From: an uncultured Anaerolineales bacterium | GTDB taxonomy: Bacteria > Chloroflexota > Anaerolineae > B4-G1 | Direction of reading: 5' to 3' | NCBI GenBank assembly: GCA_964575455.1 | Contig: CAZNRX010000001.1 | Location: 112,527 to 176,526 of the forward strand | Length of the DNA stretch: 64,000 nt | Shown: positions 23,468 to 62,544 of the stretch, one piece after another | How the letters are laid out: each line of letters begins with the position of its first letter | How positions within the stretch are numbered: position 1 is the stretch's first letter | The notes under the pieces: model-generated | Seen by the model: the letters and a program-made list of their open reading frames with translations, nothing else | Database searches by the model: none | Told to the model about the DNA's origin: nothing | Made by a program: the position numbers and the translations under genes

Positions 23468-25234
23468 ATGGCTGAGGGACCGAGGCGCAGGCTTTTGCTG
23501 ATGATCGCCTTGCTAGCGCTGGCGGTGGTGATCACCGTGGTGCAGCTGGTCAAGGTTCAGATCGTCGATCATGAGTTCTACACCAACTGGGCCAAGGAGC
23601 AGCGCGTGAGGGCGGTCAAGATGGCCCAGCCTCCACGGGGCGCGATTCACGATCGGGATGGATATCTTTTGGCCGGCAACGGGGTCAGGTACGCCATCGA
23701 AGCAGCCCCGGCCTACGTGATGAAGAAGCAAGAGGCGGCGGAGGCGTTGGCGTCGGTGCTGCATATGCCGGCCTCGCATTTGGAGGCCCAGTTAAGCAAG
23801 CGCGGCGAGAACGGGCACTACAAGATGTGGGTTTCCGTGGCTGGGTCCGTCTCCCGGGAGATGGGCGAGGCGGTCACTGAGCTGGACATCGGCGGTATCA
23901 CGGTCAGACCGCTCTGGCAGCGAGTGTATCCTGAGGACTCGCTGGCGTCTCATACGCTGGGCTTTGTCAGCGTGGTGACGGGCTACTATGGCGTCGAGGG
24001 CTTCTACAACGCGATGCTCCAGCCCGAGCCGATCAGATGGGTGGGGCCGGTGGACGTCGAGAGCGTGCCCATTCCTTGGGAGCCTGTCGAGGGGGAGTTC
24101 CCTCGCCGCGGCGTGAATCTGGAGCTGACGCTGGATCGCACGGTGCAGGCGCTGGTGGAGGCCGAGCTGGCACACGCTCTGGAGACGTATCAGGCTGAGT
24201 CGGGGACGATCATCGTCATGGAGCCGGAGACGTTCGGGATTCTAGGCATGGCCAGCCTGCCCAGCTACGATCCTGAGGACTACGCTCGGTTCGCCAATCA
24301 AGAGCCCCTGTTGTTTGAGGATCCGGCGGTGAGCAGGCAGTACGAGCCCGGTTCCGTGTTCAAGATCGTGACGGTGGCGGCAGCGCTGGACAGTGGGACC
24401 GTGATGCCGGACAGCGTCTATCACGATCGGGGCTGGATCGAGGTGGGCGGGCGCGCGATCCATAACGCCTCGCGCCAGTCCTACGGGGATCAGTCGGTGA
24501 TCGACATCCTCGTCAAGTCTCTCAACGTGGGGGCCGCGTGGCTGAGCACGAAGATGGGACCAGACATCTTCTATCAATACGCGCAGGACTTTGGCTTTGG
24601 TGAGATGACTCACGTCGATCTGAACGGAGAGGTGCGAGGTCAGCTGTGGCTGCCGGAGGATGTTGAGGATTGGTCCCCCTCCCATTTGGGGACGAACGCC
24701 TTTGGGCAGGGCGTGGCGGTGACGCCGCTGCAGATGGTCACCGCGATGGCGACCGTGGCCAACGATGGAGCCCGCCTTCGGCCTCACATCGTGCATCGCC
24801 GCGTGGCCTCCGACGGGACCCCGTCGGTCTTCCATCCGGTCTTCCAGGAGCAGGTGCTGGCCCCAGAGACCGCTCGTACGCTCACGGATATGTTGGTGCA
24901 GGTGGTTGAAGAGGGAGCGACCCAGGCCAGGGTGGAGGGATACCGGGTTGCGGGCAAGACCGGCACGGCTCAGATTCCCATCCCGGGCGGCTATGACCCG
25001 GAGGGCGCCATCGCCACATTTGTGGGCTTTGGGCCTGTGCCGGATGCAGGGTCGACGGGCGATTTCGCCCAGGTACCCGAGTTGGTCGTCCTGGTGAAGC
25101 TGGATCGCCCCCAGAGCTCGCCGTGGGCGTCCCAGACGGCGGCGCCGACGTTCCAGCGGCTGACGGCACGGCTGTTCACCATGTTGGGCATCCCGCCCAG
25201 CAGCGGCGAGTTGATGGCGGAGGTGGGACCGTGA
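23468..25234 (+). CDS. ftsI: Peptidoglycan D,D-transpeptidase FtsI (class B PBP).
   Basis: N-terminal TM, dimerisation domain, and transpeptidase motifs (SxxK 'SVFK', SxN, 'KTGT'). Confidence 0.9.
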   Translation: MAEGPRRRLLLMIALLALAVVITVVQLVKVQIVDHEFYTNWAKEQRVRAVKMAQPPRGAIHDRDGYLLAGNGVRYAIEAAPAYVMKKQEAAEALASVLHMPASHLEAQLSKRGENGHYKMWVSVAGSVSREMGEAVTELDIGGITVRPLWQRVYPEDSLASHTLGFVSVVTGYYGVEGFYNAMLQPEPIRWVGPVDVESVPIPWEPVEGEFPRRGVNLELTLDRTVQALVEAELAHALETYQAESGTIIVMEPETFGILGMASLPSYDPEDYARFANQEPLLFEDPAVSRQYEPGSVFKIVTVAAALDSGTVMPDSVYHDRGWIEVGGRAIHNASRQSYGDQSVIDILVKSLNVGAAWLSTKMGPDIFYQYAQDFGFGEMTHVDLNGEVRGQLWLPEDVEDWSPSHLGTNAFGQGVAVTPLQMVTAMATVANDGARLRPHIVHRRVASDGTPSVFHPVFQEQVLAPETARTLTDMLVQVVEEGATQARVEGYRVAGKTGTAQIPIPGGYDPEGAIATFVGFGPVPDAGSTGDFAQVPELVVLVKLDRPQSSPWASQTAAPTFQRLTARLFTMLGIPPSSGELMAEVGP

Positions 25235-30543: not shown

Positions 30544-31633
30544 TGACGCTGGCGTCGGCGCCCGTCCCCGGGCCGACATAGACGTCACCTACATCGGCGG
30601 AGAAGGAGGCATTGAGGAGACACTGGCCAAGCGGGCGGATGTTCGCTTCGTCGGCATTCCGGCCGGCGGTGTGCACGGTCTGGCGCCGTGGCGGGCGGTA
30701 CAGAACCTTTTCAAGTTGATTCGCGGCTGGTGGGCTGCCTACCGGCTTGGGCGTCGAGCCCCTGTGCGCCCATCGGCGCTCTTCGCCACCGGCGGCTACG
30801 CCAGCGTGCCCGTGGCGCTGGCGGCCTGGATGCTGCGCGTGCCCATTCTCGTCTACCTGCCCGACGTGGAGCCAGGGCTCGCCGTTCGCTTCATCGCCCG
30901 GCTGGCGTCGAAGGTTGCGGTCACGGTGGAGGACTCGCGGGCCTACTTCCCTGACCACAAGGTTGTGGTGAGCGGGTACCCGGTGCGGGCGGCCTTCCGG
31001 CGCATCCAGAGTGACGTGGGGCAGGTGGAGGCGCGGCGAACGCTGGGGCTGGCATCCCTGGCTCTGCAGGGGTCTGTGACCCCTGACGAGGATCCTGTCC
31101 TTCTCGTCATGGGCGGGAGCCGTGGGGCGCGCAGCATCAATCGCGCCTTGAGTGAGATTCTGGAGCAGGTACTGGAGATGGCGCAGGTGATACATTTGAC
31201 TGGCGAGCTGGATTGGGACTGGGCCTCCGAGCAGCGGGACGCGCTGCCCGCACGGCTGCGGGAGCGCTATGCTGCCTTTCCCTACCTGCACGAGATGGGG
31301 TATGCGCTGACCACTGCGGATCTCGCGCTCTGTCGGGCGGGAGCCTCGACCCTGGGGGAGCTTCCCTTCTTCGGGCTGCCCGCCATTCTGGTGCCGTACC
31401 CGCACGCATGGCGCTATCAGCGGGTGAACGCGGCATGGTTGACGGAGCGAAGGGCGGCGGTCACGTTGAGGGATGAGCGCTTGGAGGACGACTTGCTTTC
31501 GACACTGCGGAATCTCTTGACGGACGAAGAACGGCTGGCGCAGATGGGGGATCGGGCTCGGGCGCTCTCTCGGCCCGATGCAGCGGCTCGTCTGGCGGAG
31601 GCCTTCCTTAACACGAAGATCACGAAACCCTAG
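30458..31633 (+). CDS. murG: Undecaprenyldiphospho-muramoylpentapeptide beta-N-acetylglucosaminyltransferase MurG.
   Basis: 'WIAGGGTGGHVYPGLAV' GT28 N-terminus. GGAGGAGAG RBS at 30441-30449. Confidence 0.9.
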   Translation: MRVWIAGGGTGGHVYPGLAVVQALRAENDDAGVGARPRADIDVTYIGGEGGIEETLAKRADVRFVGIPAGGVHGLAPWRAVQNLFKLIRGWWAAYRLGRRAPVRPSALFATGGYASVPVALAAWMLRVPILVYLPDVEPGLAVRFIARLASKVAVTVEDSRAYFPDHKVVVSGYPVRAAFRRIQSDVGQVEARRTLGLASLALQGSVTPDEDPVLLVMGGSRGARSINRALSEILEQVLEMAQVIHLTGELDWDWASEQRDALPARLRERYAAFPYLHEMGYALTTADLALCRAGASTLGELPFFGLPAILVPYPHAWRYQRVNAAWLTERRAAVTLRDERLEDDLLSTLRNLLTDEERLAQMGDRARALSRPDAAARLAEAFLNTKITKP

Positions 31634-34854: not shown

Positions 34855-34913
34855 ACACGAAGTGTACGAAACATGACACGAAGTGCGCGAATGCGGGGAG
34901 GGAGGATCTGTTG

Positions 34914-36086
34914 ATGCGCAGGATCCGTGTGGGGGTTATCTTCGGTGGGTGTTCAGGGGAGCATGAGGTGTCGCTTCAGTCTGCCCGGTCCGTTATGGAC
35001 GCCATGGACAAGGAGAAGTATGAGGTCGTGCCCGTCGGTATCACCAAAGATGGCCGCTGGATCGCGTCAGGCGACCCGATGCGAGCTCTGAGGACCGGAG
35101 ATTTCAGCGCCAGCCAGCCCGCCGCGCTGCTGAGCGATCCCGGGTCGACGGGCGATCTCGCCCAGGTAGCCGGTTCAACGCAGTCCCCGCGGCAGAGATT
35201 GATGCGTCTTGATGAGAGAGGCCAGGCGATAGAAGCGACCCCGCTGGCGCAGCTCGACGTCGTCTTCCCGGTCCTTCATGGACCCTATGGCGAGGACGGC
35301 ACCGTCCAGGGCCTGCTTGAGTTGGCCGGGCTTCCCTACGTCGGCGCCCCGGTGACCGCCTCTGCGGTGGCGATGGATAAGGTGATCTTCAAGGACGTGA
35401 TGCGCGCGCACGGGTTGCCCATTGTGGAGCACGTGATGGTGAAGCGCAAGACGTGGGAGGCCGATCCCGAGAGCATCCTGGCCCAGGTCGAGGAGCGGTT
35501 TGCGTATCCGGTCTTCACCAAGCCAGCCAATCTTGGGTCGAGCGTCGGCATCTCCAAGTGTCACGAACGGGCCGGGTTAGGGGCTGGCCTGCGGGAGGCG
35601 GCCCGCTACGACCGGAAGCTGCTCGTCGAGCCGGCTGTGCCAGCGGCACGAGAGATTGAGGTCAGCGTCCTGGGCAATGATGATCTGGTCGCTTCCGTTC
35701 CTGGGGAGATCGTCCCCAGCCGCGAGTTCTACAGCTACGAGGCCAAGTACATGGACGTCGGCGAGGAGGCCTCCGATCTGTTGATCCCCGCCCCCCTCTC
35801 TCCAGAGATGACCCGGCGCGTGCAGGATATCGCGGTGCAGACCTACCGCGCTATCGACTGCGCCGGTATGGCGCGCGTCGATTTCCTGCTCTCGGGCGAG
35901 ACAGAGGCGTTGTACGTGAACGAGGTTAATACCATCCCTGGCTTCACCAGCATCAGCATGTACCCTAAGCTGTGGGAGGCCAGCGGTCTGCCCTACCCGG
36001 AGCTGATCGATCGCTTGATTGAGCTGGCGCTCGAGCGCCAGCGCGATAAGGCCCGCATAGAGATATCGTATCGAACCGGGGAGTGA
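34914..36086 (+). CDS. ddl: D-alanine--D-alanine ligase.
   Basis: 'IRVGVIFGGCSGEHEVSLQSA' N-terminus and ATP-grasp motifs. GGGAGGGAGGA RBS at 34896-34906. The listed ORF's first 111 codons overlap murB and the repeat array and are not coding. Confidence 0.88.
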   Translation: MRRIRVGVIFGGCSGEHEVSLQSARSVMDAMDKEKYEVVPVGITKDGRWIASGDPMRALRTGDFSASQPAALLSDPGSTGDLAQVAGSTQSPRQRLMRLDERGQAIEATPLAQLDVVFPVLHGPYGEDGTVQGLLELAGLPYVGAPVTASAVAMDKVIFKDVMRAHGLPIVEHVMVKRKTWEADPESILAQVEERFAYPVFTKPANLGSSVGISKCHERAGLGAGLREAARYDRKLLVEPAVPAAREIEVSVLGNDDLVASVPGEIVPSREFYSYEAKYMDVGEEASDLLIPAPLSPEMTRRVQDIAVQTYRAIDCAGMARVDFLLSGETEALYVNEVNTIPGFTSISMYPKLWEASGLPYPELIDRLIELALERQRDKARIEISYRTGE

Positions 36087-36981: not shown

Positions 36982-37075
36982 AACGGGACACGAAAGGCGC
37001 GAAGAACGACACGAAAGGCGCAAAGCACGACGCGAAGGACGCGAAGGATGAAGGGCACGAATGGGGTGCAGACCG
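36982..37075 (+). repeat. Phased CACGAA-type direct-repeat array (21-bp units 'gacacgaaaggcgcgaagaac' x2 plus degenerate copies) in the ftsQ-ftsA gap.
   Basis: Units at 36988-37008 and 37009-37029 differ by 2 nt, then 'gacgcgaaggacgcgaaggatgaagggcacgaatgg'. CGAA cores recur every 10-11 bp. Confidence 0.85.
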
Positions 37076-38337: not shown

Positions 38338-38430
38338 CGCGAAGGGCACGAAACAGAAGACGAAGAGCGTGAAATAGAGCACGAAGGGCACGAAGCACGA
38401 AACACACGAAACACTATGGGCACGAGATAG
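38338..38430 (+). repeat. Second phased CACGAA/CGAAG repeat array (ftsA-ftsZ intergenic region).
   Basis: 'cgcgaagggcacgaaacagaagacgaagagcgtgaaatagagcacgaagggcacgaagcacgaaacacacgaaacac' with cores spaced ~10 bp. Confidence 0.85.
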
Positions 38431-43149: not shown

Positions 43150-43272
43150 GGTGCGTTGGTGCATTGCACGTGCCGTGCGTGCGGGCCACCTGGCGGAGTA
43201 CGGTGCGTTGCACGTGCTGTGCGTGCGGGCCACCTGGCGGAGTACGGTGCGTTGCACGTGCCGTGCGTGCGA
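43150..43272 (+). repeat. Tandem repeat, ~44-bp unit x2.7 (ggtgcgttgcacgtgcYgtgcgtgcgggccacctggcggagtac), each copy carrying the palindrome GCACGTGC.
   Basis: Copies at 43150-43201 (with an 8-bp internal duplication), 43202-43245 and 43246-43272 (partial). GCACGTGC at 43166, 43210 and 43254, exactly 44 bp apart. Confidence 0.9.
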
Positions 43273-48058: not shown

Positions 48059-48099
48059 CGCGTCACCTCCTAAACACGAAAACCACGAACTACGCTGCT

Positions 48100-51529: not shown

Positions 51530-53229
51530 TCTACCTCCAGGGGCAATCTGAACGTGAACCGGCTGCCCTCTCCGGGCGTGCTGTCCACCCAGATGTCGCC
51601 GCCGTGAGCCTCCACGGCCAGCTTGCAGAAAGGGAGCCCAAGGCCCGTGCCCTTCGTTCCTCGGGCGCTCTCCAGGCGCGTGAAGCGCTCGAAGATGTGG
51701 CTCTTTGCTTCTGGGGATATGCCCAGCCCGTTGTCGGAGACGGTGAACGATAGGCTTACCTCTCCCTGCTCAACCGTGAGGGCGATCTCGCCTTCCGCTG
51801 GGGTGAACTTCGCCGCGTTGTCCAACAGGTTCGTCAGGACGCGGGTGATCATGTCGCGGTCGACGCTCACCGGAGGGAGGCCAGTTGGGACGTCGACGGT
51901 GAGCGCCTGCTTCTTCTTCTCAATCACCGGTCGCACCAGGTCGACCGCCTCTCGGGCCAATAGCCTGGGCGGCACCAGGATTCTGTTCAGGTCCGCCTTC
52001 CCCTCCTCCAGCTGCCGCAGATCGAGAAGGGAGTCGATGAGACGCCGCAGTCTCTTGCTGCTGCGCATCGCTACTTGTAGTACGTCCATGATGGGGAAGG
52101 TGCTGTCCTCCTCCCGGAGCGCCTGCTGCATCATCTGTAGGCTGCCCACAATGTTGCTCAATGGATTCTGCAGGTCGTGGACGATCATATGCATCAGATC
52201 ATCCCTCATGCGCTCGAGTTCCGTCAGTTCTGTGATGTCGTGTCCGATCCACTGGATGGCCCTCTGTCTCCCGTAGTCGATAGTCGTCATATGCACACTC
52301 AAGGTGCGTGGGCCGCTGGGGGACGGTATTCTCATCTCAGCGCTCTTCTCCCCATTCTCGGGCAGGGTCTCGAACAGCGTCTCAGCTGTAGCTGCCGTAG
52401 GGCTCAGGGCTGTCGCGGAGCGTATGGCCGTCGCGGAGCCTGCTCCTTGCTTCCCACCGAGCAGATCGCCCCAGCGCGATCCGATGAGTTCGCCCGCTGG
52501 CCGTCCCATCAACTCGACTGCCTTCTGGTTGACGTCAAGGATCTCCGTGTTGAAGTCCATAACGATCACTGGCACGGGGCTGCCGTGGAACAGCCTCTCG
52601 TAGCGGCGTTCAGCTCGGCCCGCGCGCTCGTAGAGCTCCGCGTTGTGGATGGCCAGCGCGGCCTGATCCGCGATCTGGTTCAGTACCTCCAGCGCGTGCT
52701 CGTCGAGCGTGCCGGCGGTGGGGTTGAGGGCCTCAATCGCACCGATGGTCTCCTGCTCTACCTTGATAGGGGCTGCCAGCACGGTCTGGGTTTGGAAGCC
52801 CGTCTTCTCGTCGATGCCGAAGTAGAAACGCTTGTCGCTATAAGCGTCCGAGATGAGGATCGACTTACCCTCTCGCGTAACCCAGCCGGCGATGCCTTCA
52901 TCCAGCGGAAGGCGGAGGCCGGTGATGGCCTCGGGTGTCCCACCGACGGCGACTCGGAACGTGAGGGTAGGGGAGCCCTTGCCATCCATGCTCTCCTGGT
53001 CGAGGAGGGCGACAGACACCGCTTCCACCTGGAAGTAGTCGCGCACCTGAGTCATTAGGGAGTGGAGCACGCTGTCCAGGTCCAGTGTAGCCGTCAGCAG
53101 CTGGTTTGTCTCGCGGAGGAAGGATAGCTCACGCACCTTGGACTCGAGGCGCCGAATCCGTTCAAGGTTGTTGGAGGGGACAGACGCCATCCCGGGGATA
53201 GACGCCATCCCTGACTCATTCTCTGTCAT
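51526..53229 (-). CDS. GAF/PAS sensor histidine kinase.
   Basis: A GAF domain, then PAS, HisKA ('MIVHDLQNPLSNI') and HATPase_c ('GTGLGLPFCKLAVEAHGG'). Confidence 0.85.
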   Translation of the reverse strand: MTENESGMASIPGMASVPSNNLERIRRLESKVRELSFLRETNQLLTATLDLDSVLHSLMTQVRDYFQVEAVSVALLDQESMDGKGSPTLTFRVAVGGTPEAITGLRLPLDEGIAGWVTREGKSILISDAYSDKRFYFGIDEKTGFQTQTVLAAPIKVEQETIGAIEALNPTAGTLDEHALEVLNQIADQAALAIHNAELYERAGRAERRYERLFHGSPVPVIVMDFNTEILDVNQKAVELMGRPAGELIGSRWGDLLGGKQGAGSATAIRSATALSPTAATAETLFETLPENGEKSAEMRIPSPSGPRTLSVHMTTIDYGRQRAIQWIGHDITELTELERMRDDLMHMIVHDLQNPLSNIVGSLQMMQQALREEDSTFPIMDVLQVAMRSSKRLRRLIDSLLDLRQLEEGKADLNRILVPPRLLAREAVDLVRPVIEKKKQALTVDVPTGLPPVSVDRDMITRVLTNLLDNAAKFTPAEGEIALTVEQGEVSLSFTVSDNGLGISPEAKSHIFERFTRLESARGTKGTGLGLPFCKLAVEAHGGDIWVDSTPGEGSRFTFRLPLEVE

Positions 53230-53867
53230 AGGCTCTCAAATACCACTTCCTCCCGCCCATGAAGCTTCTCGAGTACTTTCTCCGTGATCATGTCCAGGTG
53301 GTCGTGGTTCGTCACGAAGTCCAAGGCATCGGAGGGCACGGTCAGCACCGGACAGAGTGAGAAGCTGCTGATCCATCCCTCATACAGCCTGTTCAACTGG
53401 TCGAGGTAGGTTGTCGAGATCTTCTGTTCGTAGGAGCGGCCGCGTCTCTGGATCCGCTGCTTCAGCGTGGCCACCGAAGCCCGCAGGTAGATGATCAGGT
53501 CTGGAGGAGGGAGCACCGTGGTCACCACCTCGTAGAGCTCGCAGTAGCTCCGGTAGTCCCGTTCTTCCATCGACCCCTGCCGATAGAGATTGCACGCGAA
53601 GATCTCGGCGTCCTCGTAAACCGTTCGGTCTTGCACCACGGAGTTCGCGCGTTGGAGAAGCTGCCAATGATGGCGCAGACGGCGCGATAGGAAGTAGATC
53701 TGTGAGTGGAAGCTCCACCGCTCCATGTCCTCGTAGAAGTCAGATAGATAGGGGTTGTCATTGACGGCCTCGAAGAAAGGCTCCCAATCCAGCCGCTTGC
53801 TCAGCAGTTCCGTCAACGTGGATTTCCCGACGCCTATGTTGCCGGCGATGGCGACAAAACGTTTCAT
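53226..53867 (-). CDS. Deoxynucleoside kinase (dAK/dCK/dGK family).
   Basis: 'IAGNIGVGKSTL' P-loop and dNK-family ERS-like core. Very strong GGAGGGAGAGGGGAGG RBS; ATG at 53867 overlaps the upstream stop. Confidence 0.85.
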   Translation of the reverse strand: MKRFVAIAGNIGVGKSTLTELLSKRLDWEPFFEAVNDNPYLSDFYEDMERWSFHSQIYFLSRRLRHHWQLLQRANSVVQDRTVYEDAEIFACNLYRQGSMEERDYRSYCELYEVVTTVLPPPDLIIYLRASVATLKQRIQRRGRSYEQKISTTYLDQLNRLYEGWISSFSLCPVLTVPSDALDFVTNHDHLDMITEKVLEKLHGREEVVFESL

Positions 53868-56800
53868 ACCTCCCCTCTCCCTCCACCTTCCCGAAAGCTT
53901 CCGTCGGCTTTCGGCGAGGTTGCCTGCGGCAGAGAGACGATGAAGGTGCTTCCTGCCTGCGGTGAGCTTCTGACGGTCACGTGGCCCCCGTACACCTCCA
54001 CGATTTCCCATACCAGAGCCAGTCCAATGCCCATCCCCTCGAAGCGTCGTTTGATGCTGCCATCAACCTGGTAGAATCGCTCGAAGATGCGATCCAGGTG
54101 CTCTTGCTTGATCCCGATACCTTCGTCCTTGACCGCGACACACGAGGAGCCGTCATCTTCCCAGGCCTGGAGCGTGATGGTGCCACCGTCGGGGCTGAAC
54201 TTGATGGCGTTTTCGATCAAATGGGTGAAGGCCTGCGTCAGGTGCTCTCTGTTTGCCATCACCGGGGGGAGGGCATCGGGAAGCGCCTTGTACAAGCGGA
54301 CCCCCGCGCTGCACGCTCGTGCCTTGAGCTCCAGCGCCGCGTGTTCTACGGCCTCCAGCAGGCAGACCGGTCTCGACATTGGCTTCTCTCGGGATAGGCT
54401 GTCGAGCGTCGTCAGGTCCCGGGTGCGACGCTGAAGGGCGTCGATGCGCTTGCGAATGATCATCAGCGCTTCCTGCTGCTTCGCCGACAAGGACCCCAGG
54501 TCTCCGGCCATCAAGAGCTCGATGTAACCCTGTACCAGCGTGAACGGGGTTCGCAGCTCGTGGCTTACATTCTGCACCAGCTCGGTGCGCAGTCGGTCTA
54601 TTTCCTTCAGCTCGTCGTAAGCCTGGCTCAGCTTGTCCCGCTGCTCTTGCAGCCTCTGGTAGAGTCGGGCGTTCTCCAGCACGATACCAAGCTGGGCAGC
54701 GACAGCTTGGAACAGGCGCAGATCGTCTTCGTCGAATGCGTTCGTCTTGGGGCTCTCAGCGTTGAGGACCGCGATCACGCGTCCAGCGACCCTGACCGGC
54801 ACGTTCAGTTCCGAGAGCACCTCGGGCGCTCCCTCGAAATAGCCTGGCGTCTCGCGCACGTCGTCGATGATCTGGGCTTCTCCGGTCAGGTAGGCCCGCC
54901 CCGCCACACTCCGATCCAGCGGTATCCTCACCTTGGTCATCTCCGGCGCATAGCCGATCTGAGAGGGATGCAGCTTGAGGGCCGTGGCGTGGTGCCTGCC
55001 ATCTGCGGAGGATGCCTCTTGGTGGCCGAACACCTCCGATTCCAAATCCGGAAGGGCAAACGAGAGGTGCTCGATGCCGAGCATGTGATGTAGCGCGTCG
55101 ATGGTTCGTTCCAGCACCTTGTCGAAATCGAGCGTGATGGCTCCGGCTTGCATCACCTGCTGCAGCAAGCGCATCTCCCTCAGCCGCCGCTTAAGCTCTT
55201 CGAACAGCCGGGCCTTTTCCACCGCGATAGCAACTTGGTTGGAGATGCCGGAGAAGATGCGGCGGTGCTCCTCGTCGAAGGCGTGGGGCTCATACGATTG
55301 CGCGGAGATGACACCGATCAGCTCATCTCTGGCCAGGAGTGGCAGAACCATCAGAGATCGCGTCGGCGTGCCTCGGGCGATGCCTTCCACAGGCAAGGTC
55401 TCCTGGTCCCGCTCCCAGTCGTCGATCCATAGCGGCTCCTTGTTGCGCACCACCCATCCCGCAAATCCCCCGTCCTCTTCAAGATCCAGCGCGACGGGGT
55501 CCAGACGGCGTCCTCGGTCGACGATGAGCGAGATGTAGAGCTTTCCGTTTCCAGATGACCCGGCGATATCGCCCGTTGACGTATCTTGGTAGAGCCCGAT
55601 GTAGAACGTGGTGATGTCCATCAGTCTGCTCAACTGCTCATAGACCCGTTCCAACACCTCGTCCAGGCTGAGTGTCGAGTTGATGGCCAGGTCGATGTTG
55701 CGGAGCGCAGTGAGCACCTCGACGTGGTGCTGCTCCTCCTCATGCAGGCGAGCGTTCTGCAGGGCGATGGCTATCTGCTCTGCCAGCGTGGATGCTGTGG
55801 CGACATCCAGCTCGTCGAAGCGTCTCCTCTCTTGGCACTGCAGATCAAGCACCCCGATGACCTCGCTTTCAATCCTGAGAGGCAATGCCAGCTCTGACCC
55901 GGCCTGATACCTGTCCGGGAAGGGGGCGAAGTACCTCTCCTCCTGGCGAGCATCGTTGCTTGCCAGACACTGGCCGTGGCGCGCAACCCAACCGATGATG
56001 CCCTGGTCCAGCGGCTGGCGGTAGTCGTCCGGCACCGCGTCTGCTCCGATCCCCGCCTTGCCTCCGATGATCAAGTCCCCGGCCTTCGCATCCATCAGCA
56101 TGATAATCACGCTGTCGTAGCGAAAGTGTTCATGGATGGTCTCGGCCACGGCCGGAAGCAGGCGCTCAGGCTCGAGGATGGTGTTGGCCTGCCGGGCCAC
56201 CAGGCTGAGCAGGGCGCCGTACCTGGCCTGACGACGGGCCTGCTGGTAGAGCCTGGCGTTCTCGATTGCGAGCGTCGCCTGCGCAGCGACCCACGTAGCC
56301 ACGTCGATCTGTCTGGCCGTGAAACGGCGTCCCTCCTCGACGTGATCCAGCGCCATCAGGCCCACGACCCACTTCTTGCTGATCAGGGGAACGAGGAGCA
56401 CGCTCTTGATGCCGAAGGGCTCGATCAGGCGCTTGGGCAGCGACGAGGCCTCCGCATCGGCGATGAACAACGGGCTCTGCTCGCGAATCACCCGCTGCGC
56501 CTCTGGGATCTCAGTCAGCGGCACAGGATAGCTTGCTTCCCTGAACAAGCGCCACATCTCATGGTCCTTGTGGCCGTTGCTGAACGCGGACATAGCCGGT
56601 CTCGACATCTCTCCATCGTCGCCGATCAAGACGATGGTGCAGCGATGCGCCCCACAGACGTCGGCCGCGAGCTGGCTCACCCGTTTCAGCACCTGGGTCA
56701 TGTCCAGCGTCGCGGACACCTCGCGTCCGATCTCGACCAGTGTCCTCAGTTCCTTGTTGCTCTCCTCAAGATCAGCGGTGCGCGGCCAGTAGGTCGAGGG

Positions 56801-57145
56801 GCGATCTCGCTCGGGCACCGTCGCTGCACTTGGTTGTGCGGCATCTCCTTCCACGCCTTCCTGGTAGGCCCGCTTATCCGCTCTCAGGCGCTGTACCTCG
56901 TCCAACAGGCTCGAATCCAGCGGTTCTAGTTCATCTGCAGGCAGCAGGCTGGCGTCGACCACCACCACGTCCGGTGAGGCCGTGGCCTCGCAGGCGTGCT
57001 TGGTCAGCATCTCATCGACCTCGTTGAGGTCGGCCACAGCGTAGACTGTATGTCCGCTCTGCTCCAGCAGCGCCTGGAGCGCCTCGCGGACGCTCGGCTC
57101 GTCGGCTGCAATCAGGATCTTGATCACGTCAGCTTTTGGTGACAT
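53864..57145 (-). CDS. Hybrid multi-GAF sensor histidine kinase with an N-terminal receiver (REC) domain.
   Basis: N-terminal REC ('IKILIAADEPSVREAL...VVVVDASL'), at least four GAF domains, HisKA ('VSHELRTPFT') and HATPase_c ('GMGIGLALV'). Confidence 0.85.
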   Translation of the reverse strand: MSPKADVIKILIAADEPSVREALQALLEQSGHTVYAVADLNEVDEMLTKHACEATASPDVVVVDASLLPADELEPLDSSLLDEVQRLRADKRAYQEGVEGDAAQPSAATVPERDRPSTYWPRTADLEESNKELRTLVEIGREVSATLDMTQVLKRVSQLAADVCGAHRCTIVLIGDDGEMSRPAMSAFSNGHKDHEMWRLFREASYPVPLTEIPEAQRVIREQSPLFIADAEASSLPKRLIEPFGIKSVLLVPLISKKWVVGLMALDHVEEGRRFTARQIDVATWVAAQATLAIENARLYQQARRQARYGALLSLVARQANTILEPERLLPAVAETIHEHFRYDSVIIMLMDAKAGDLIIGGKAGIGADAVPDDYRQPLDQGIIGWVARHGQCLASNDARQEERYFAPFPDRYQAGSELALPLRIESEVIGVLDLQCQERRRFDELDVATASTLAEQIAIALQNARLHEEEQHHVEVLTALRNIDLAINSTLSLDEVLERVYEQLSRLMDITTFYIGLYQDTSTGDIAGSSGNGKLYISLIVDRGRRLDPVALDLEEDGGFAGWVVRNKEPLWIDDWERDQETLPVEGIARGTPTRSLMVLPLLARDELIGVISAQSYEPHAFDEEHRRIFSGISNQVAIAVEKARLFEELKRRLREMRLLQQVMQAGAITLDFDKVLERTIDALHHMLGIEHLSFALPDLESEVFGHQEASSADGRHHATALKLHPSQIGYAPEMTKVRIPLDRSVAGRAYLTGEAQIIDDVRETPGYFEGAPEVLSELNVPVRVAGRVIAVLNAESPKTNAFDEDDLRLFQAVAAQLGIVLENARLYQRLQEQRDKLSQAYDELKEIDRLRTELVQNVSHELRTPFTLVQGYIELLMAGDLGSLSAKQQEALMIIRKRIDALQRRTRDLTTLDSLSREKPMSRPVCLLEAVEHAALELKARACSAGVRLYKALPDALPPVMANREHLTQAFTHLIENAIKFSPDGGTITLQAWEDDGSSCVAVKDEGIGIKQEHLDRIFERFYQVDGSIKRRFEGMGIGLALVWEIVEVYGGHVTVRSSPQAGSTFIVSLPQATSPKADGSFREGGGRGEV

Positions 57146-57186
57146 CTTCCGTTAGATACGAAGAGCGCGAAACACGGAGGCACGAA

Positions 57187-58161
57187 TCATGAAGGCCTCG
57201 AATCGTAGGGGGGCGAGGGCTCTACCCCGATCGAATCCGCCAATTCCTTCAGCTGTGCCATGGCTTGTTGCAGCGTCGCTTTCATCTGGGAGGCCCGCAC
57301 CTCAGAACGCTCCGCTCCCTGCTGGGCGAGGAATGCCCCTACGCGGCCCAGGGCCTCATTCGCCGCCAGAAACTCGCCCAGGCCCGGGGGACCGACCTGT
57401 CCTGGCTGCAATTGATAGGCCGCTCGCTGCGGGACATCCCACATCTGCGCCTCGCCTGCCGAGTGCGGGCTCGACCACCCGCTTGCCACAGATTCTCCCA
57501 ACTGTGGCAGCGACTGCTGATAGGCGCCGATCCCCAATGACCTCCTGACCTTCTCCTCGACGAACGCAAGAGCGCTGTTATCCCGGACGTAGTTCAAGTC
57601 GTTGGTGTCGATGACCAGCAGAGCCTTCGTGCCCTTCGCGTCCCTTTTCGCGCCTTTCGTGTTCTTGCTGGCGAAGTGGGCCTCGTAAGCCTCTCTCACC
57701 ATAGCGATATAGTCGCGATCCATCTCCCGCTCGTATGGGCGGTCGCGCGCCGCGATGCGCGCCATCAGCGTGTCTGTGTCGGCCTTGAGATAGATCACCA
57801 GATCGGGAACGGCGATGCGATCCGCGAGCAGAGCATATAGCCTTCGGTACATCTCTAGCTCATCGCCCTCCAGGTTCAGACGGGCGAAGAGGGCGTCCTT
57901 GCCGAACGTGTAGTCGCCAATCAGGGGTTTGTTCGCCGTCAGCGACGGTATCTCCTGTTGCTGGCGGTAGCGGCTCAGGAGGAAGAACAACTGCGTCTGG
58001 AAGGCGTAGCGGGCGCGATCGCCGTAGAAGCTTGAGAGGAATGGGTTCTCCTCAAAGGCCTCCAAAAGTAGCTCTGCCTCGAAGCGCGGCTGCAGGAGGC
58101 GGGCCAGCGTCGTCTTGCCCACTCCGATCGGCCCTTCGATGGCCAGGAAAAAGGGTCTCAT
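57187..58161 (-). CDS. Deoxynucleoside kinase paralogue with a ~130-aa C-terminal extension and a repeat-derived internal insertion.
   Basis: 'IEGPIGVGKTTLA' P-loop. An 11-aa insertion 'KNTKGAKRDAKGT', encoded by CACGAA-family repeat DNA, is absent from the paralogue at 53226-53867. Confidence 0.8.
   Translation of the reverse strand: MRPFFLAIEGPIGVGKTTLARLLQPRFEAELLLEAFEENPFLSSFYGDRARYAFQTQLFFLLSRYRQQQEIPSLTANKPLIGDYTFGKDALFARLNLEGDELEMYRRLYALLADRIAVPDLVIYLKADTDTLMARIAARDRPYEREMDRDYIAMVREAYEAHFASKNTKGAKRDAKGTKALLVIDTNDLNYVRDNSALAFVEEKVRRSLGIGAYQQSLPQLGESVASGWSSPHSAGEAQMWDVPQRAAYQLQPGQVGPPGLGEFLAANEALGRVGAFLAQQGAERSEVRASQMKATLQQAMAQLKELADSIGVEPSPPYDSRPS
57623..57662 (-). repeat. CACGAA-family repeat copy embedded in-frame inside the deoxynucleoside kinase CDS.
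   Basis: Reverse complement 'aacacgaaaggcgcgaaaagggacgcgaagggcacgaagg' matches the ftsQ-ftsA unit 'gacacgaaaggcgcgaag'. Confidence 0.8.
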
Positions 58162-59742: not shown

Positions 59743-61164
59743 CTAGGCATCGAAGTAGAGCTCCATCTCGTAGGGATGGGGGCGGTTACGGACCTGATAA
59801 TACTCCTCGTCCATCTTGAACGCGGTCCACCGCTTGATGAGATCCTCTGTGAAGACCTCATCGACCAGCAGGAAGTCGTGGTCCTCCTCCAGCGCCTCCA
59901 GTGACTCCTTCAGGGAGCTGGGCAGCGGCTTGATCTCCGCTCGTCTCCTTTCCGACCACGAGAAGATGTCCGCATCGATTGGCCCAAAGCCCGCCTCGCT
60001 CGGGTCAATCTGGCGGCGCACCCCGTCCAGGCCCGCCAGGAGCTGCCCCGCCAGCGTCAGGTAGACGTTGCACGTGGCGTCTGGGGGACGGAACTCGATG
60101 CGCGCCTCGTCAGGCTGCGTGGCGTAGCGCGGGATGCGCACCGCGGCGCTCCGGTTGCCGATGGAGAAGAACGCGTTGACCGGCGCCTCGTAGCCGGGCA
60201 CCAGCCGCCGGTAGGAGTTTGTGCTCGGGCTCGTCAGGCCCAGCAGTGCAGGGCCGTGGTGGAGCAGCCCGCCGATGTAGTAGAGGGCCGTCTCGCTCAT
60301 CAGCCCGTAGCCATCCGGATCGTAGAAGACGTTATGGCCGTCCTTGAACAGGTGCTGATGAAAGTGCATGCCGGAGCCCGCCTCGCCGTAGATCGGCTTG
60401 GGCATGAACGTGGCCGTCTGGCCGTGGTGGTGCGCCGTCATCTTCGTGACGTACTTGACGATCATGGTGGCGTCGCCAGCCTGCAGGAGGCCCATCAGCG
60501 GCGTCTCGATCTCGCACTGTCCCGGCCCGCCTACCTCGTGATGGTGGTACTTCACCGGGACGCCCATCGACTGCAGCTGGAGGCTCATCTCGCTGCGCAC
60601 GTTGTGGAGTGCATCCTTGGGGGGTATGGCGTGATAACCGCCGTGCAGCGGGATGTAGTGCCCGTGGCCCGCCACGCCGCTGCGCCACGTGGCCTCGCTC
60701 GACTCGACCCTGTAGCCTGCGCGGTTCATCTCATTCTCGTAGGCCACTGTGTCGAAGACGTAGAACTCAAACTCCGGCCCCCACAGGCTGCGGTCGGCGA
60801 TGCCGCTCTCCACCAGGTGCTTCTCCGCGCGGCGGGCCACGTTGCGCGGATCGTTGTCGAAGATCGCCTTCGTGTCTGCCTCCAACGTCGTACAGATGAA
60901 GCTGACCGTCGGCGCGTCGCAGAAGGGGTCTGCGAACCCGGTGGAGAGGTCCGGCACCAGAACCATGTCGCCGGCCTTGACGGACTTGAGACCGACCGCG
61001 GACCCGTCGAACCCCACTCCAGCCTCCATCAGCGCCGGCGTGAAACGTTCTCTCGGCACCGTGAGGTGGTGCCAGCGCCCCCACAGATCCGTGAACTTGA
61101 GATCGACCATCTGGATATCATTCGTCTCCACGTAGTTCCGAGCCTCTTCAAATGAACTGAACAT
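59743..61164 (-). CDS. glnA: Glutamine synthetase (type I-like).
   Basis: GS beta-grasp and catalytic domain motifs ('FDGSA', 'GPEFEFYVFD', 'KPIYGEAGSGMHFHQ', 'NVYLTLAG'). AAGGGGG RBS before MFSSFEE. Confidence 0.9.
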   Translation of the reverse strand: MFSSFEEARNYVETNDIQMVDLKFTDLWGRWHHLTVPRERFTPALMEAGVGFDGSAVGLKSVKAGDMVLVPDLSTGFADPFCDAPTVSFICTTLEADTKAIFDNDPRNVARRAEKHLVESGIADRSLWGPEFEFYVFDTVAYENEMNRAGYRVESSEATWRSGVAGHGHYIPLHGGYHAIPPKDALHNVRSEMSLQLQSMGVPVKYHHHEVGGPGQCEIETPLMGLLQAGDATMIVKYVTKMTAHHHGQTATFMPKPIYGEAGSGMHFHQHLFKDGHNVFYDPDGYGLMSETALYYIGGLLHHGPALLGLTSPSTNSYRRLVPGYEAPVNAFFSIGNRSAAVRIPRYATQPDEARIEFRPPDATCNVYLTLAGQLLAGLDGVRRQIDPSEAGFGPIDADIFSWSERRRAEIKPLPSSLKESLEALEEDHDFLLVDEVFTEDLIKRWTAFKMDEEYYQVRNRPHPYEMELYFDA

Positions 61165-61380
61165 CTCTGCCCCCTTTTCGTGCCCGTCATTTCGTGGGTG
61201 GTCCCCCTCTTGCATGTTGTTGGCTCATTTTCGCTCATGAGGGATCGTGGGTCGACGCAGTCACCCGAGATCCCGTCCAGAGCGCCGGATAGCCATATCC
61301 GGCGCGAGCAGAGTGGCAAATGTGGCGCGCTGCAACCCAGCAACACGCTACAGGGGGACCACCATTTCGTGAGCTTCGTC

Positions 61381-62544
61381 TCAATTCGTATCCTTCGTGT
61401 TGAGAATCTGACGATACACAGCCACGGTCCTGGCCGCTACGCTTTCCTGCGTGAACTGGCGCAGCACTCTCTCTCGTCCCCGTCTCGCCAGGCGGCGTGC
61501 GATCTCGGGTTCGTGCATCAACCGGACCAGATGGGCCTTGAGCGCTGCGACGTCGCCCTCCGGGAACACCAGACCGGCATCCCCGATGACGTGGGGAATC
61601 TCTCCGCAGTCGGAGCCGATGACCGGAACGCCACACGCCATCGCCTCGATCAGCACCCGCCCGAACTGCTCCACCCAGTTCGGTTGGGAGCGCGAGGGCA
61701 AGACGAGCGCGTCCAACTGCCGGTAGAACGCCGGCATGCGCAGCGACGGCAGCCACCCCTCGAATGTGACGTTGCCGGTCAACCCCAGGTGACGGGTCTG
61801 GGCCTCCAGTGCCTCCCTTTCGCTGCCGTCACCCAGGATGCGCAGGCGCCACGGCCCGGCTTCGAGCGCTGGGCCCTTCAAGTCCCCCACCGCTTCCAGC
61901 AGCAGATCGACACCCTTCTCCGGCACCAGACGGCCCACGTACCCGATGGCAAAGGGCGATCCCGGCGTGGCGCCTCGCACCGGAGACTCCTCTGAAGGCG
62001 ATGAGTTGGAGGGCGTGAAGATGGTGGGATCGACCCCAAACTGGGGGATGATGGCCATCGGCCCTTCGTAGCCCTTGTCCCGCCAAACCTCCGCTGCCCC
62101 CTCGCTGCCCACGATGGCGTAGTTGGTGTTCTGGAGGTTGTAGGACTCGATCAGTCGGAAGGGCAGTGGATACCGTCGGTTGAGGTTCTGCCAGGAGAAC
62201 CAGAGAGCTCGGGCGCTAGCTCGCTTGGCCATCCAGAGGGCGTGGGCCGTGCCGAGGTTGTAGGGTTCCTCATCAATGTGTACCACGTCGGGGGCGAACG
62301 ACCGCAAGCGTCGCCCCAGCCGGGGGTAGATGTGGAGGTGGAAGCTGCCGCTGAACGTGATGGGCTCCACCACCAACTCGTACCCGTCTGTGTGTGCGCG
62401 TTCCAGGTGGAGCACCCGGCTGGCCTCGCGCCAGGAGGGGGGGACGGCGACCATCAGGTCGACGTCGGGAAAGCGAGCGATCTCCTCAAGCTTCCGCTGG
62501 TAGGCGCCCACCAGACAGGCCTTGGAGACCATCAGAACGCGCAT
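61381..62544 (-). CDS. GT4-family glycosyltransferase (GT-B fold).
   Basis: 'EQFGRVLIEAMACGVPVIGSDCGEIPHVIGD' EX7E-type GT4 motif. The last codons (ILNTKDTN*) are encoded by CACGAA-repeat DNA. Confidence 0.85.
   Translation of the reverse strand: MRVLMVSKACLVGAYQRKLEEIARFPDVDLMVAVPPSWREASRVLHLERAHTDGYELVVEPITFSGSFHLHIYPRLGRRLRSFAPDVVHIDEEPYNLGTAHALWMAKRASARALWFSWQNLNRRYPLPFRLIESYNLQNTNYAIVGSEGAAEVWRDKGYEGPMAIIPQFGVDPTIFTPSNSSPSEESPVRGATPGSPFAIGYVGRLVPEKGVDLLLEAVGDLKGPALEAGPWRLRILGDGSEREALEAQTRHLGLTGNVTFEGWLPSLRMPAFYRQLDALVLPSRSQPNWVEQFGRVLIEAMACGVPVIGSDCGEIPHVIGDAGLVFPEGDVAALKAHLVRLMHEPEIARRLARRGRERVLRQFTQESVAARTVAVYRQILNTKDTN

Follow-up and report, generated by a model that had tools for sequence, protein, structure and literature searches.

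In cyanobacteria, short tandemly repeated repetitive (STRR) sequences are exact heptamers; within one lineage, tandem amplification has placed them at many dispersed sites, most of them non-coding. In-frame coding minisatellites, such as the VNTRs of surface and contingency genes, are usually gene-specific and of local origin, and the lengths of their units are multiples of three. The accounts in PMC10969869 and PMC3184786 describe the Rickettsia palindromic element (RPE), which is known from Rickettsia, is palindromic, extends over ~100–150 bp, and encodes a conserved peptide at each location (Ogata et al. 2000, 2002). MIRU/VNTR elements are described in PMC3184786 as units of 40–100 bp that contain small internal inverted repeats and lie in the spacers of polycistronic operons (Supply et al. 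1997). According to these two sources (PMC10969869, PMC3184786), RPE, BRE, BOX/RUP/SPRITE, and MIRU elements all overlap or enter genes.

Here, we describe a family of short arrays in a 64-kb stretch of Chloroflexota DNA (hereafter the window, meaning the whole stretch that was analyzed) and a member that lies in frame within a gene for a deoxynucleoside kinase (dNK). Like RPEs, these arrays are interspersed between genes and also found in frame in unrelated housekeeping genes, where they add a peptide compatible with the fold and leave the host gene intact. Unlike RPEs, they are 20–90 nt in length and non-palindromic, consist of 9-nt units in variable number, and occur in Chloroflexota. They share with MIRUs the tandem arrangement of units in operon spacers, ends that overlap flanking stop or start codons, and variation in the number of units; they differ in that the unit is 9 nt in length with a conserved core of 6–7 nt, and the account of MIRUs cited above does not report them as internal loops of enzymes. 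As in STRRs, one very short unit is repeated in tandem at many dispersed loci, whereas the cores studied here are separated by variable fillers of 2–6 nt, arrays have a preferred start, and coding sequence is entered. Gain or loss of a unit alters protein length without a frameshift, as it does in coding minisatellites. In contrast to the latter, the array family found in dNK also occupies many spacers, and the host gene encodes a housekeeping enzyme of the cytoplasm.

Results

The repeat unit in the window has a CRCGAA(R) core; of 35 intervals from one core to the next, 22 measure 9 nt, five 12 nt, and four 7 nt. The window contains six clusters of three or more CRCGAA units (0.03 expected by chance) and 11 clusters of two or more cores (1.2 expected). 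Most arrays open with AACACGAAR, and one of their strands is devoid of T. They normally occupy short operon spacers and lie in either orientation relative to transcription (Table 1). Tandem Repeats Finder (TRF) reported periods of 21, 9, and 16 at 36987–37048 and 38378–38425. The window matched no Rfam covariance model at gathering thresholds, and the arrays matched none at permissive thresholds; a match to Acido-Lenti-1 on a metagenome locus (L135) is unrelated to the arrays.

Table 1 Positions of the repeat arrays and dNK genes in the window.
Feature	Position	Strand	Remarks
Two-unit array forming the last seven codons and stop of murG (NTKITKP-stop), murG-cvpA junction	31610..31633	+	
murB-ddl spacer array, four units	34856..34900	+	Ddl start MRRIRVG downstream
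ftsQ-ftsA spacer array	36988..37065	+	Block 37005–37047 is the closest counterpart of the dNK insert
ftsA-ftsZ spacer array	38338..38425	+	Unit content far diverged from relative, flanks conserved
Two-unit spacer array, antisense to flanking genes	48073..48096	+	Conserved in relative
Short dNK paralog, 213 amino acids, without insert	53226..53867	-	Pfam dNK
Spacer array directly 3' of dNK, on the strand opposite to the dNK copy	57157..57190	+	Orthologous copy in relative
Long dNK gene	57187..58161	-	324 amino acids; kinase domain 1–210 and conserved C-terminal extension
In-frame CRCGAAR array in dNK, four units, core spacing 9-12-9	57624..57663	-	Residues 167–179
Two-unit array immediately upstream of glnA	61177..61205	-	
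Array start forming the last six codons and stop of a GT4 glycosyltransferase (NTKDTN-stop)	61381..61401	-	Runs on to ~61366

Two other repetitive features of the window deserve mention. The spacer between the GT4 glycosyltransferase gene and glnA (61197–61363, minus strand) contains an element of ~165 nt upstream of glnA with 27-nt inverted arms that are 85% complementary; a CRCGAA array lies on each side of the element, which has no Rfam match, permissive thresholds included. A 44-nt tandem repeat of 2.6 copies (95% identity) occupies positions 43158–43271, and a diverged fourth match is found at 60066.

The long dNK open reading frame matches the Pfam dNK family (PF01712) with E = 8e-32 and the short paralog with E = 5e-58; the P-loop GPIGVGKTT is kept among the aligned dNK orthologs. 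A first-pass annotation, made from the letters of the window, had proposed that a repeat was inserted in frame in the long gene and was missing from the paralog, and both points are confirmed. The coding strand at 57624–57663 reads AACACGAAAGGCGCGAAAAGGGACGCGAAGGGCACGAAGG, a 40-mer without T that encodes the 13-residue loop NTKGAKRDAKGTK (residues 167–179), and the BLASTP alignment of the two paralogs (32% identity) has a gap of 10 residues exactly at this point. T is absent from the coding strand across 51 nt (57623–57673). The annotation had already remarked on the lack of T and of stop codons, but had limited the latter to one orientation; since a strand without T has a complement without A, the stretch is free of stops in all six frames. 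The kinase domain has a dN/dS of 0.10 (dS = 0.33) between the window gene and that of its closest relative, both of which bear the insert, so the kinase has been kept under purifying selection with the insert in place. Chance resemblance or an assembly artifact as the source of the insert is ruled out by the presence of the same insert in an independent metagenome assembly.

Residues ~215–324 of the long dNK (window 57187–57530) form a C-terminal extension that is conserved among orthologs, carries the motif FLAANEAxGRVG, and is predicted to contain two helices (261–279 and 287–311) that follow a disordered linker. This extension has no match in Pfam and is absent from the short paralog.

A repeat search of the whole window identified the ftsQ-ftsA and ftsA-ftsZ spacers as the best reverse-complement partners of the dNK stretch, with identities of 76% over 50 nt and 82% over 38 nt for the former and 78% over 41 nt for the latter. 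The four units of the dNK insert are colinear with 37005–37047 without gaps (~82% identity), and the CGAA cores have equal 9-12-9 spacing. An exact 16-mer, ACACGAAAGGCGCGAA, runs across two unlike units and occurs both at 36988 and within dNK, with none expected from shuffles. The dNK array also begins with the AACACGAAR opening that is typical of the family. Together, these similarities place the dNK stretch in one repeat family with the ftsQ-ftsA and ftsA-ftsZ arrays. The earlier description of the insert as nearly identical to the ftsQ-ftsA unit is therefore right as to family and colinearity and overstated as to degree, the identity being only ~82%.

The position of the insert in the protein was examined in an AlphaFold model that was built from the ortholog alignment (mean pLDDT 75.7). 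In this model, residues 149–168 form a helix, residues 169–179 form coil, and residues 180–185 form a strand, with pLDDT falling below 50 at residues 170–175. Foldseek matched the model to 8puu, 2jaq, and dCK/dGK with a probability of 1.00, and comparison with solved dNK, dCK, and dGK structures gave target-normalized TM scores of 0.68–0.87 over ~210 columns; sequence alignments to the solved kinases end just short of the insert. As modeled, the insert is the loop that joins the last long helix and the last β-strand of the kinase fold. We infer from secondary structure and pLDDT, rather than from coordinates, that this loop is exposed on the surface. The length of the loop differs from ortholog to ortholog. 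The first-pass annotation had looked for the indel in a surface loop; the alignment and the model identify it as a lineage-specific in-frame addition to a variable loop between helix 149–168 and strand 180–185.

A search of 5.8 billion proteins yielded many dNK orthologs, and those named belong to Anaerolineae or Chloroflexota. The NTKG...DAKG segment is present in two of the 38 orthologs aligned, that of the window and that of its closest relative (P0002 on L001, an independent JGI assembly), which are 89% identical. In the remaining orthologs, the loop is minimal (FAN-YTxxP-LLTID) or carries an unrelated extension of 5–6 residues. The next clade (65–72% identity) conserves the gene order PGM, dNK, GAF kinase, short dNK, and the DNA of its dNK loop is unrelated to the insert (e.g., EGMCPAPYAASS). 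In the next clade, arrays are missing from the ~80 kb that surround dNK and from the ftsQ-ftsA-ftsZ spacers; one genome of this clade has two copies of the array family at other sites. The closest relative, by comparison, carries arrays at all seven comparable sites, each orthologous to that of the window. The 80 loci that are more distant yielded one clear array, a related one with a 7-nt period (L018), and a weak cluster of three cores (L023); the distant dNK relatives from the contig scan (identity of 59% or less among the matches listed) served only as a negative control. By these comparisons, the insert is derived and limited to the lineage whose spacers hold arrays. The same insertion in repeat-free relatives would have marked it as ancestral, as the first-pass annotation had pointed out; relatives without arrays in the sampled spacers lack it.

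The array of L018 (positions 61–103), which comes from an Anaerolinea thermophila metagenome-assembled genome, consists of six to seven TGCGAAR units. It suggests that lineage-specific versions of CGAA arrays exist within Anaerolineae.

The window and its closest relative (L001/L087) also allow the arrays to be compared over a short distance. Exactly one 9-nt unit, GCGCGAAAA, separates the two dNK copies; it encodes three residues and is missing in the relative. The ftsQ-ftsA array is 33 nt longer in the window; the ftsA-ftsZ arrays differ by indels of 12 and 4 nt, the murB-ddl array by one of 5 nt, and the spacer array 3' of dNK by one of 1 nt. Differences between arrays of the two genomes are thus mainly small indels of 1–33 nt, most clearly of 9, 12, and 33 nt. 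Spacer arrays have also accumulated more substitutions than their flanks, which are well conserved. No whole array has been gained or lost at the seven comparable arrays of the two genomes.

Array sequence is found in other coding regions as well, although the census of coding versus spacer copies is small, covering 64 kb from the source genome and ~34 kb from its relative. MurG ends in ...AFLNTKITKP in the window and its relative and in ...LLILP or ...LLRLT in the next clade (L088, L089). The GT4 glycosyltransferase upstream of glnA ends in ...ILNTKDTN in the window and in ...INTKKKKRGHEEPE in GCA_964421785.1, and the array encodes the tail in both genomes. Ddl of GCA_964421785.1 (L088 8655–8708), known from a single metagenome-assembled genome, contains a 54-nt in-frame insert that opens with ACACGAAGGGCACGAAAGGGGGGTGCAG and has two CACGAA units at its start. 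The insert adds 18 residues in the turn of a β-hairpin, where the protein segment now reads ETRRARKGGAGDQVAQGTRA, and is absent from the window, its close relative, and 16 other orthologs. The MurG and GT4 tails in the window and the Ddl insert in the related genome bear out the proposal that the repeat can colonize coding sequences. In five of five coding overlaps, the sense strand is the purine-rich strand. Sense frames of the arrays give residues of the T/K/N, T/R/R, or H/E/G type, whereas antisense frames would give L/R/V, F/V, or S/C. The encoded peptides are unlike from site to site (NTKGAKRDAKGTK, NTKITKP, NTKDTN, and ETRRARKGG).

Several further observations concern these coding copies. 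The Ddl insert of L088 continues with GGGGGGTGCAGGCG, which resembles the 3' end of the ftsQ-ftsA array of the window (CACGAATGGGGTGCAGACCG); the ftsQ-ftsA spacer of GCA_964421785.1 itself has no array, despite this resemblance. We considered CGAAWGGGGTGCAG as a common 3' end of arrays and did not find it established, inasmuch as only the ftsQ-ftsA spacer of the window and the Ddl insert of L088 have it. The ftsQ-ftsA spacer of GCA_964421785.1 (L088 9898–10000) holds a different element with long runs of C and of G (CCCCCCCCCTCAGTCCCCCCCAGTGGGGGGGG) that could pair. The one plausible further case is on a contig of 49% GC, where a ACACGAAA array (L121 3374–3403) lies inside a cysteine desulfurase gene and encodes ARKHENTKTRKH; this segment is only two residues longer than in solved homologs.

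Features of transposable elements were sought at the arrays. The dNK, ftsQ-ftsA, and ftsA-ftsZ arrays are predicted to fold no better than shuffled sequences do (z of -0.2 to -1.2), with no terminal inverted repeats or hairpin, and a search within 150 nt of 20 arrays found an inverted 9-mer at none of them. The first-pass annotation took the repeat to be a mobile, miniature repeat rather than only a binding site, and looked to target-site duplications for support. Repeated entry of the family into coding sequences is supported. Mobility of the transposon type is not: terminal inverted repeats, hairpins, and duplications are lacking, and no direct repeat flanks either the dNK array or the Ddl insert of L088. 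The spacer copies may also serve as binding sites. At dNK and at Ddl, one lineage carries the insert and others lack it; the loops differ in sequence, so that there is no clean empty site, and the two closest genomes have all seven sites in common. A 6-nt inverted repeat (CCAGCA/TGCTGG) that flanks the dNK array was taken as chance; it is weaker in the relative, and its right arm corresponds to conserved Leu-Leu codons.

The ddl gene of the window contains a second, unrelated in-frame insert at 35151–35180 (30 nt, encoding the 10 residues GDLAQVAGST), which is absent from the closest relative. It copies a segment of an ftsI-like penicillin-binding protein gene at 25043–25079 (encoding GSTGDFAQV), with 33 of 37 positions identical (89%). 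The insert starts immediately after the 9-mer GGGTCGACG, which is common with ftsI, and ends in an imperfect repeat of this 9-mer. A weaker copy lies at 56792–56815. The core, GGGCGATCTCGCCC, is a perfect palindrome. Judged by these sequence features, the 30-nt insert looks like a microhomology-mediated templated insertion.

A scan of metagenome contigs for three such units returned at least 120 stretches, and 80 loci were fetched (L090–L169). The CACGAAG-type arrays in these 80 loci are found at GC contents of 34–71%, and their cores are mostly spaced by 8–9 nt. A perfect inverted match of at least 12 nt lies close by in ~18 of 117 metagenome arrays, and such pairs form hairpins of the type CCACGAAGACACGAAGGACACGAAG-loop-CTTCGTGTCCTTCGTGTCTTCGTGG. 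Stop-free spans do not separate coding from non-coding arrays on these contigs because the arrays themselves lack stops and GC-rich contigs have long open frames. Rfam had no match on the arrays of 20 metagenome loci, and a search for the array strings among the papers that could be searched gave a single, irrelevant match. Inverted pairs of arrays on these contigs would form hairpins of 25–35 bp (e.g., L090 430–545, L124, L159, L127, and L167); some contigs hold more than 50 units, and the array copies of L127 have a common leader, AAATCTCACCACGAAG.

Discussion

Taken together, our results make it probable that the dNK stretch belongs, as one copy, to a lineage-specific family of interspersed arrays with short units. 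A block of four units would have entered dNK before the two genomes split, in their common ancestor, and may have replaced whatever loop stood there; the two copies have since diverged by one whole 9-nt unit under continued purifying selection. Several properties may have allowed the enzyme to tolerate such a block: freedom from stops in six frames, steps of 9 and 12 nt that keep the reading frame, sense frames that give small hydrophilic residues (T, K, N, G, A, D, and R), and a target loop that was already variable in length across the dNK family. The peptide is most likely a neutral passenger. The Lys-rich loop, or the DNA motif within the gene, may also have a function.

How the block was copied is the weakest step of this proposal. 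We suggest that, rather than by a transposase, copies arise by template switching or ectopic repair, either from one array to another or where there is microhomology. Template switching is plausible in this genome because of the ftsI-derived insert in ddl. Transposition is disfavored by the absence of inverted ends, of target duplications, and of differences in copy sites between close genomes. Purely local slippage fits poorly because the four units, which are unlike one another, are ordered and spaced as in a block of a different array.

It is tempting to speculate that the arrays are one face of a widely distributed, undescribed class of bacterial interspersed elements with defined ends, present as single arms in this Anaerolineae lineage and as hairpin-forming inverted pairs on many other metagenome contigs (34–71% GC), which would spread by some copying mechanism and, being free of stops in all six frames, would regularly seed peptides in essential enzymes. 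We offer this broader view as a tentative possibility.

An origin within dNK itself appears unlikely. In such a scheme, replication slippage from a chance CACGAAG-like seed would have produced a coding minisatellite, and its likeness to the spacer arrays would reflect the same mutational process. The difference of exactly one 9-nt unit between the dNK copies of the two genomes, the similar change of spacer arrays by small indels, and the naturally indel-prone character of the loop are all consistent with slippage. However, the four units are mutually different and bear no trace of recent duplication, the outgroup loops have no seed-like sequence, and the stretch carries the AACACGAAR opening of the family. 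Moreover, the order of units and the 9-12-9 spacing copy the ftsQ-ftsA block, including an exact 16-mer across unlike units.

The arrays could instead be functional cis-elements that bind a DNA or RNA factor, for example in the cell-division operon, and the dNK copy would be retained because it regulates the downstream kinase genes from within dNK. In operon spacers, arrays immediately precede ftsA, ftsZ, ddl, glnA, and a sensor kinase gene; they have kept their positions in both genomes, and a conserved core with variable sequence between cores is what a repeated site would look like. Against a regulatory role are the occurrence of arrays in both orientations relative to transcription, the turnover of unit content at a faster rate than that of the flanking spacer, the absence of arrays from the same essential genes in the next clade, and the lack of an Rfam family or predicted structure. 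We consider this explanation improbable as well. Least likely is movement in trans by a transposase, as for a classical non-autonomous element (MITE, REP, or RPE-like). In its favor, dispersed copies have a common 5' end, two different genes in two lineages acquired insertions independently, and metagenome contigs carry many similar arrays, often as inverted pairs. Against it, the arrays lack terminal inverted repeats and hairpins, neither dNK nor Ddl has a target-site duplication, no whole copy was gained or lost between two close genomes, and 40 nt is below the usual size of a MITE.

The dNK array lies in frame within a housekeeping gene that is intact, at a site the fold can accommodate (dN/dS 0.10, low-pLDDT loop), as expected of an RPE, but at 40 nt and without a palindrome it departs from the ~100–150-bp palindrome with a conserved peptide. 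The arrays share with STRRs and MIRUs the short head-to-tail units at dispersed loci and the variation in unit number between relatives. The palindromes of REP/REPIN elements are absent in this lineage, with inverted doublets of similar units occurring on other metagenome contigs, and the dNK array has neither the inverted repeats nor the target duplications of MITEs. The dNK array thus resembles RPEs in outcome and MIRUs and STRRs in architecture and dynamics.

It is already known that repeats turn into protein sequence; what is new here is an example with an unusual type of repeat. The dNK insert provides a dated and polarized case showing that non-coding repeat DNA can join essential enzymes outside Rickettsia. 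It also suggests a rule for repeats that enter proteins, namely that one strand lacks T, the unit length is divisible by three, and the sense frames are hydrophilic. For the annotation and alignment of Chloroflexota proteins, Lys/Thr/Gly-rich loops and C-terminal tails of this kind should be attributed to repeats and not taken for functional motifs. The wider class of arrays in metagenomes, if real, would constitute an unannotated genomic feature that deserves a systematic survey, including a search for the protein that binds or copies it.
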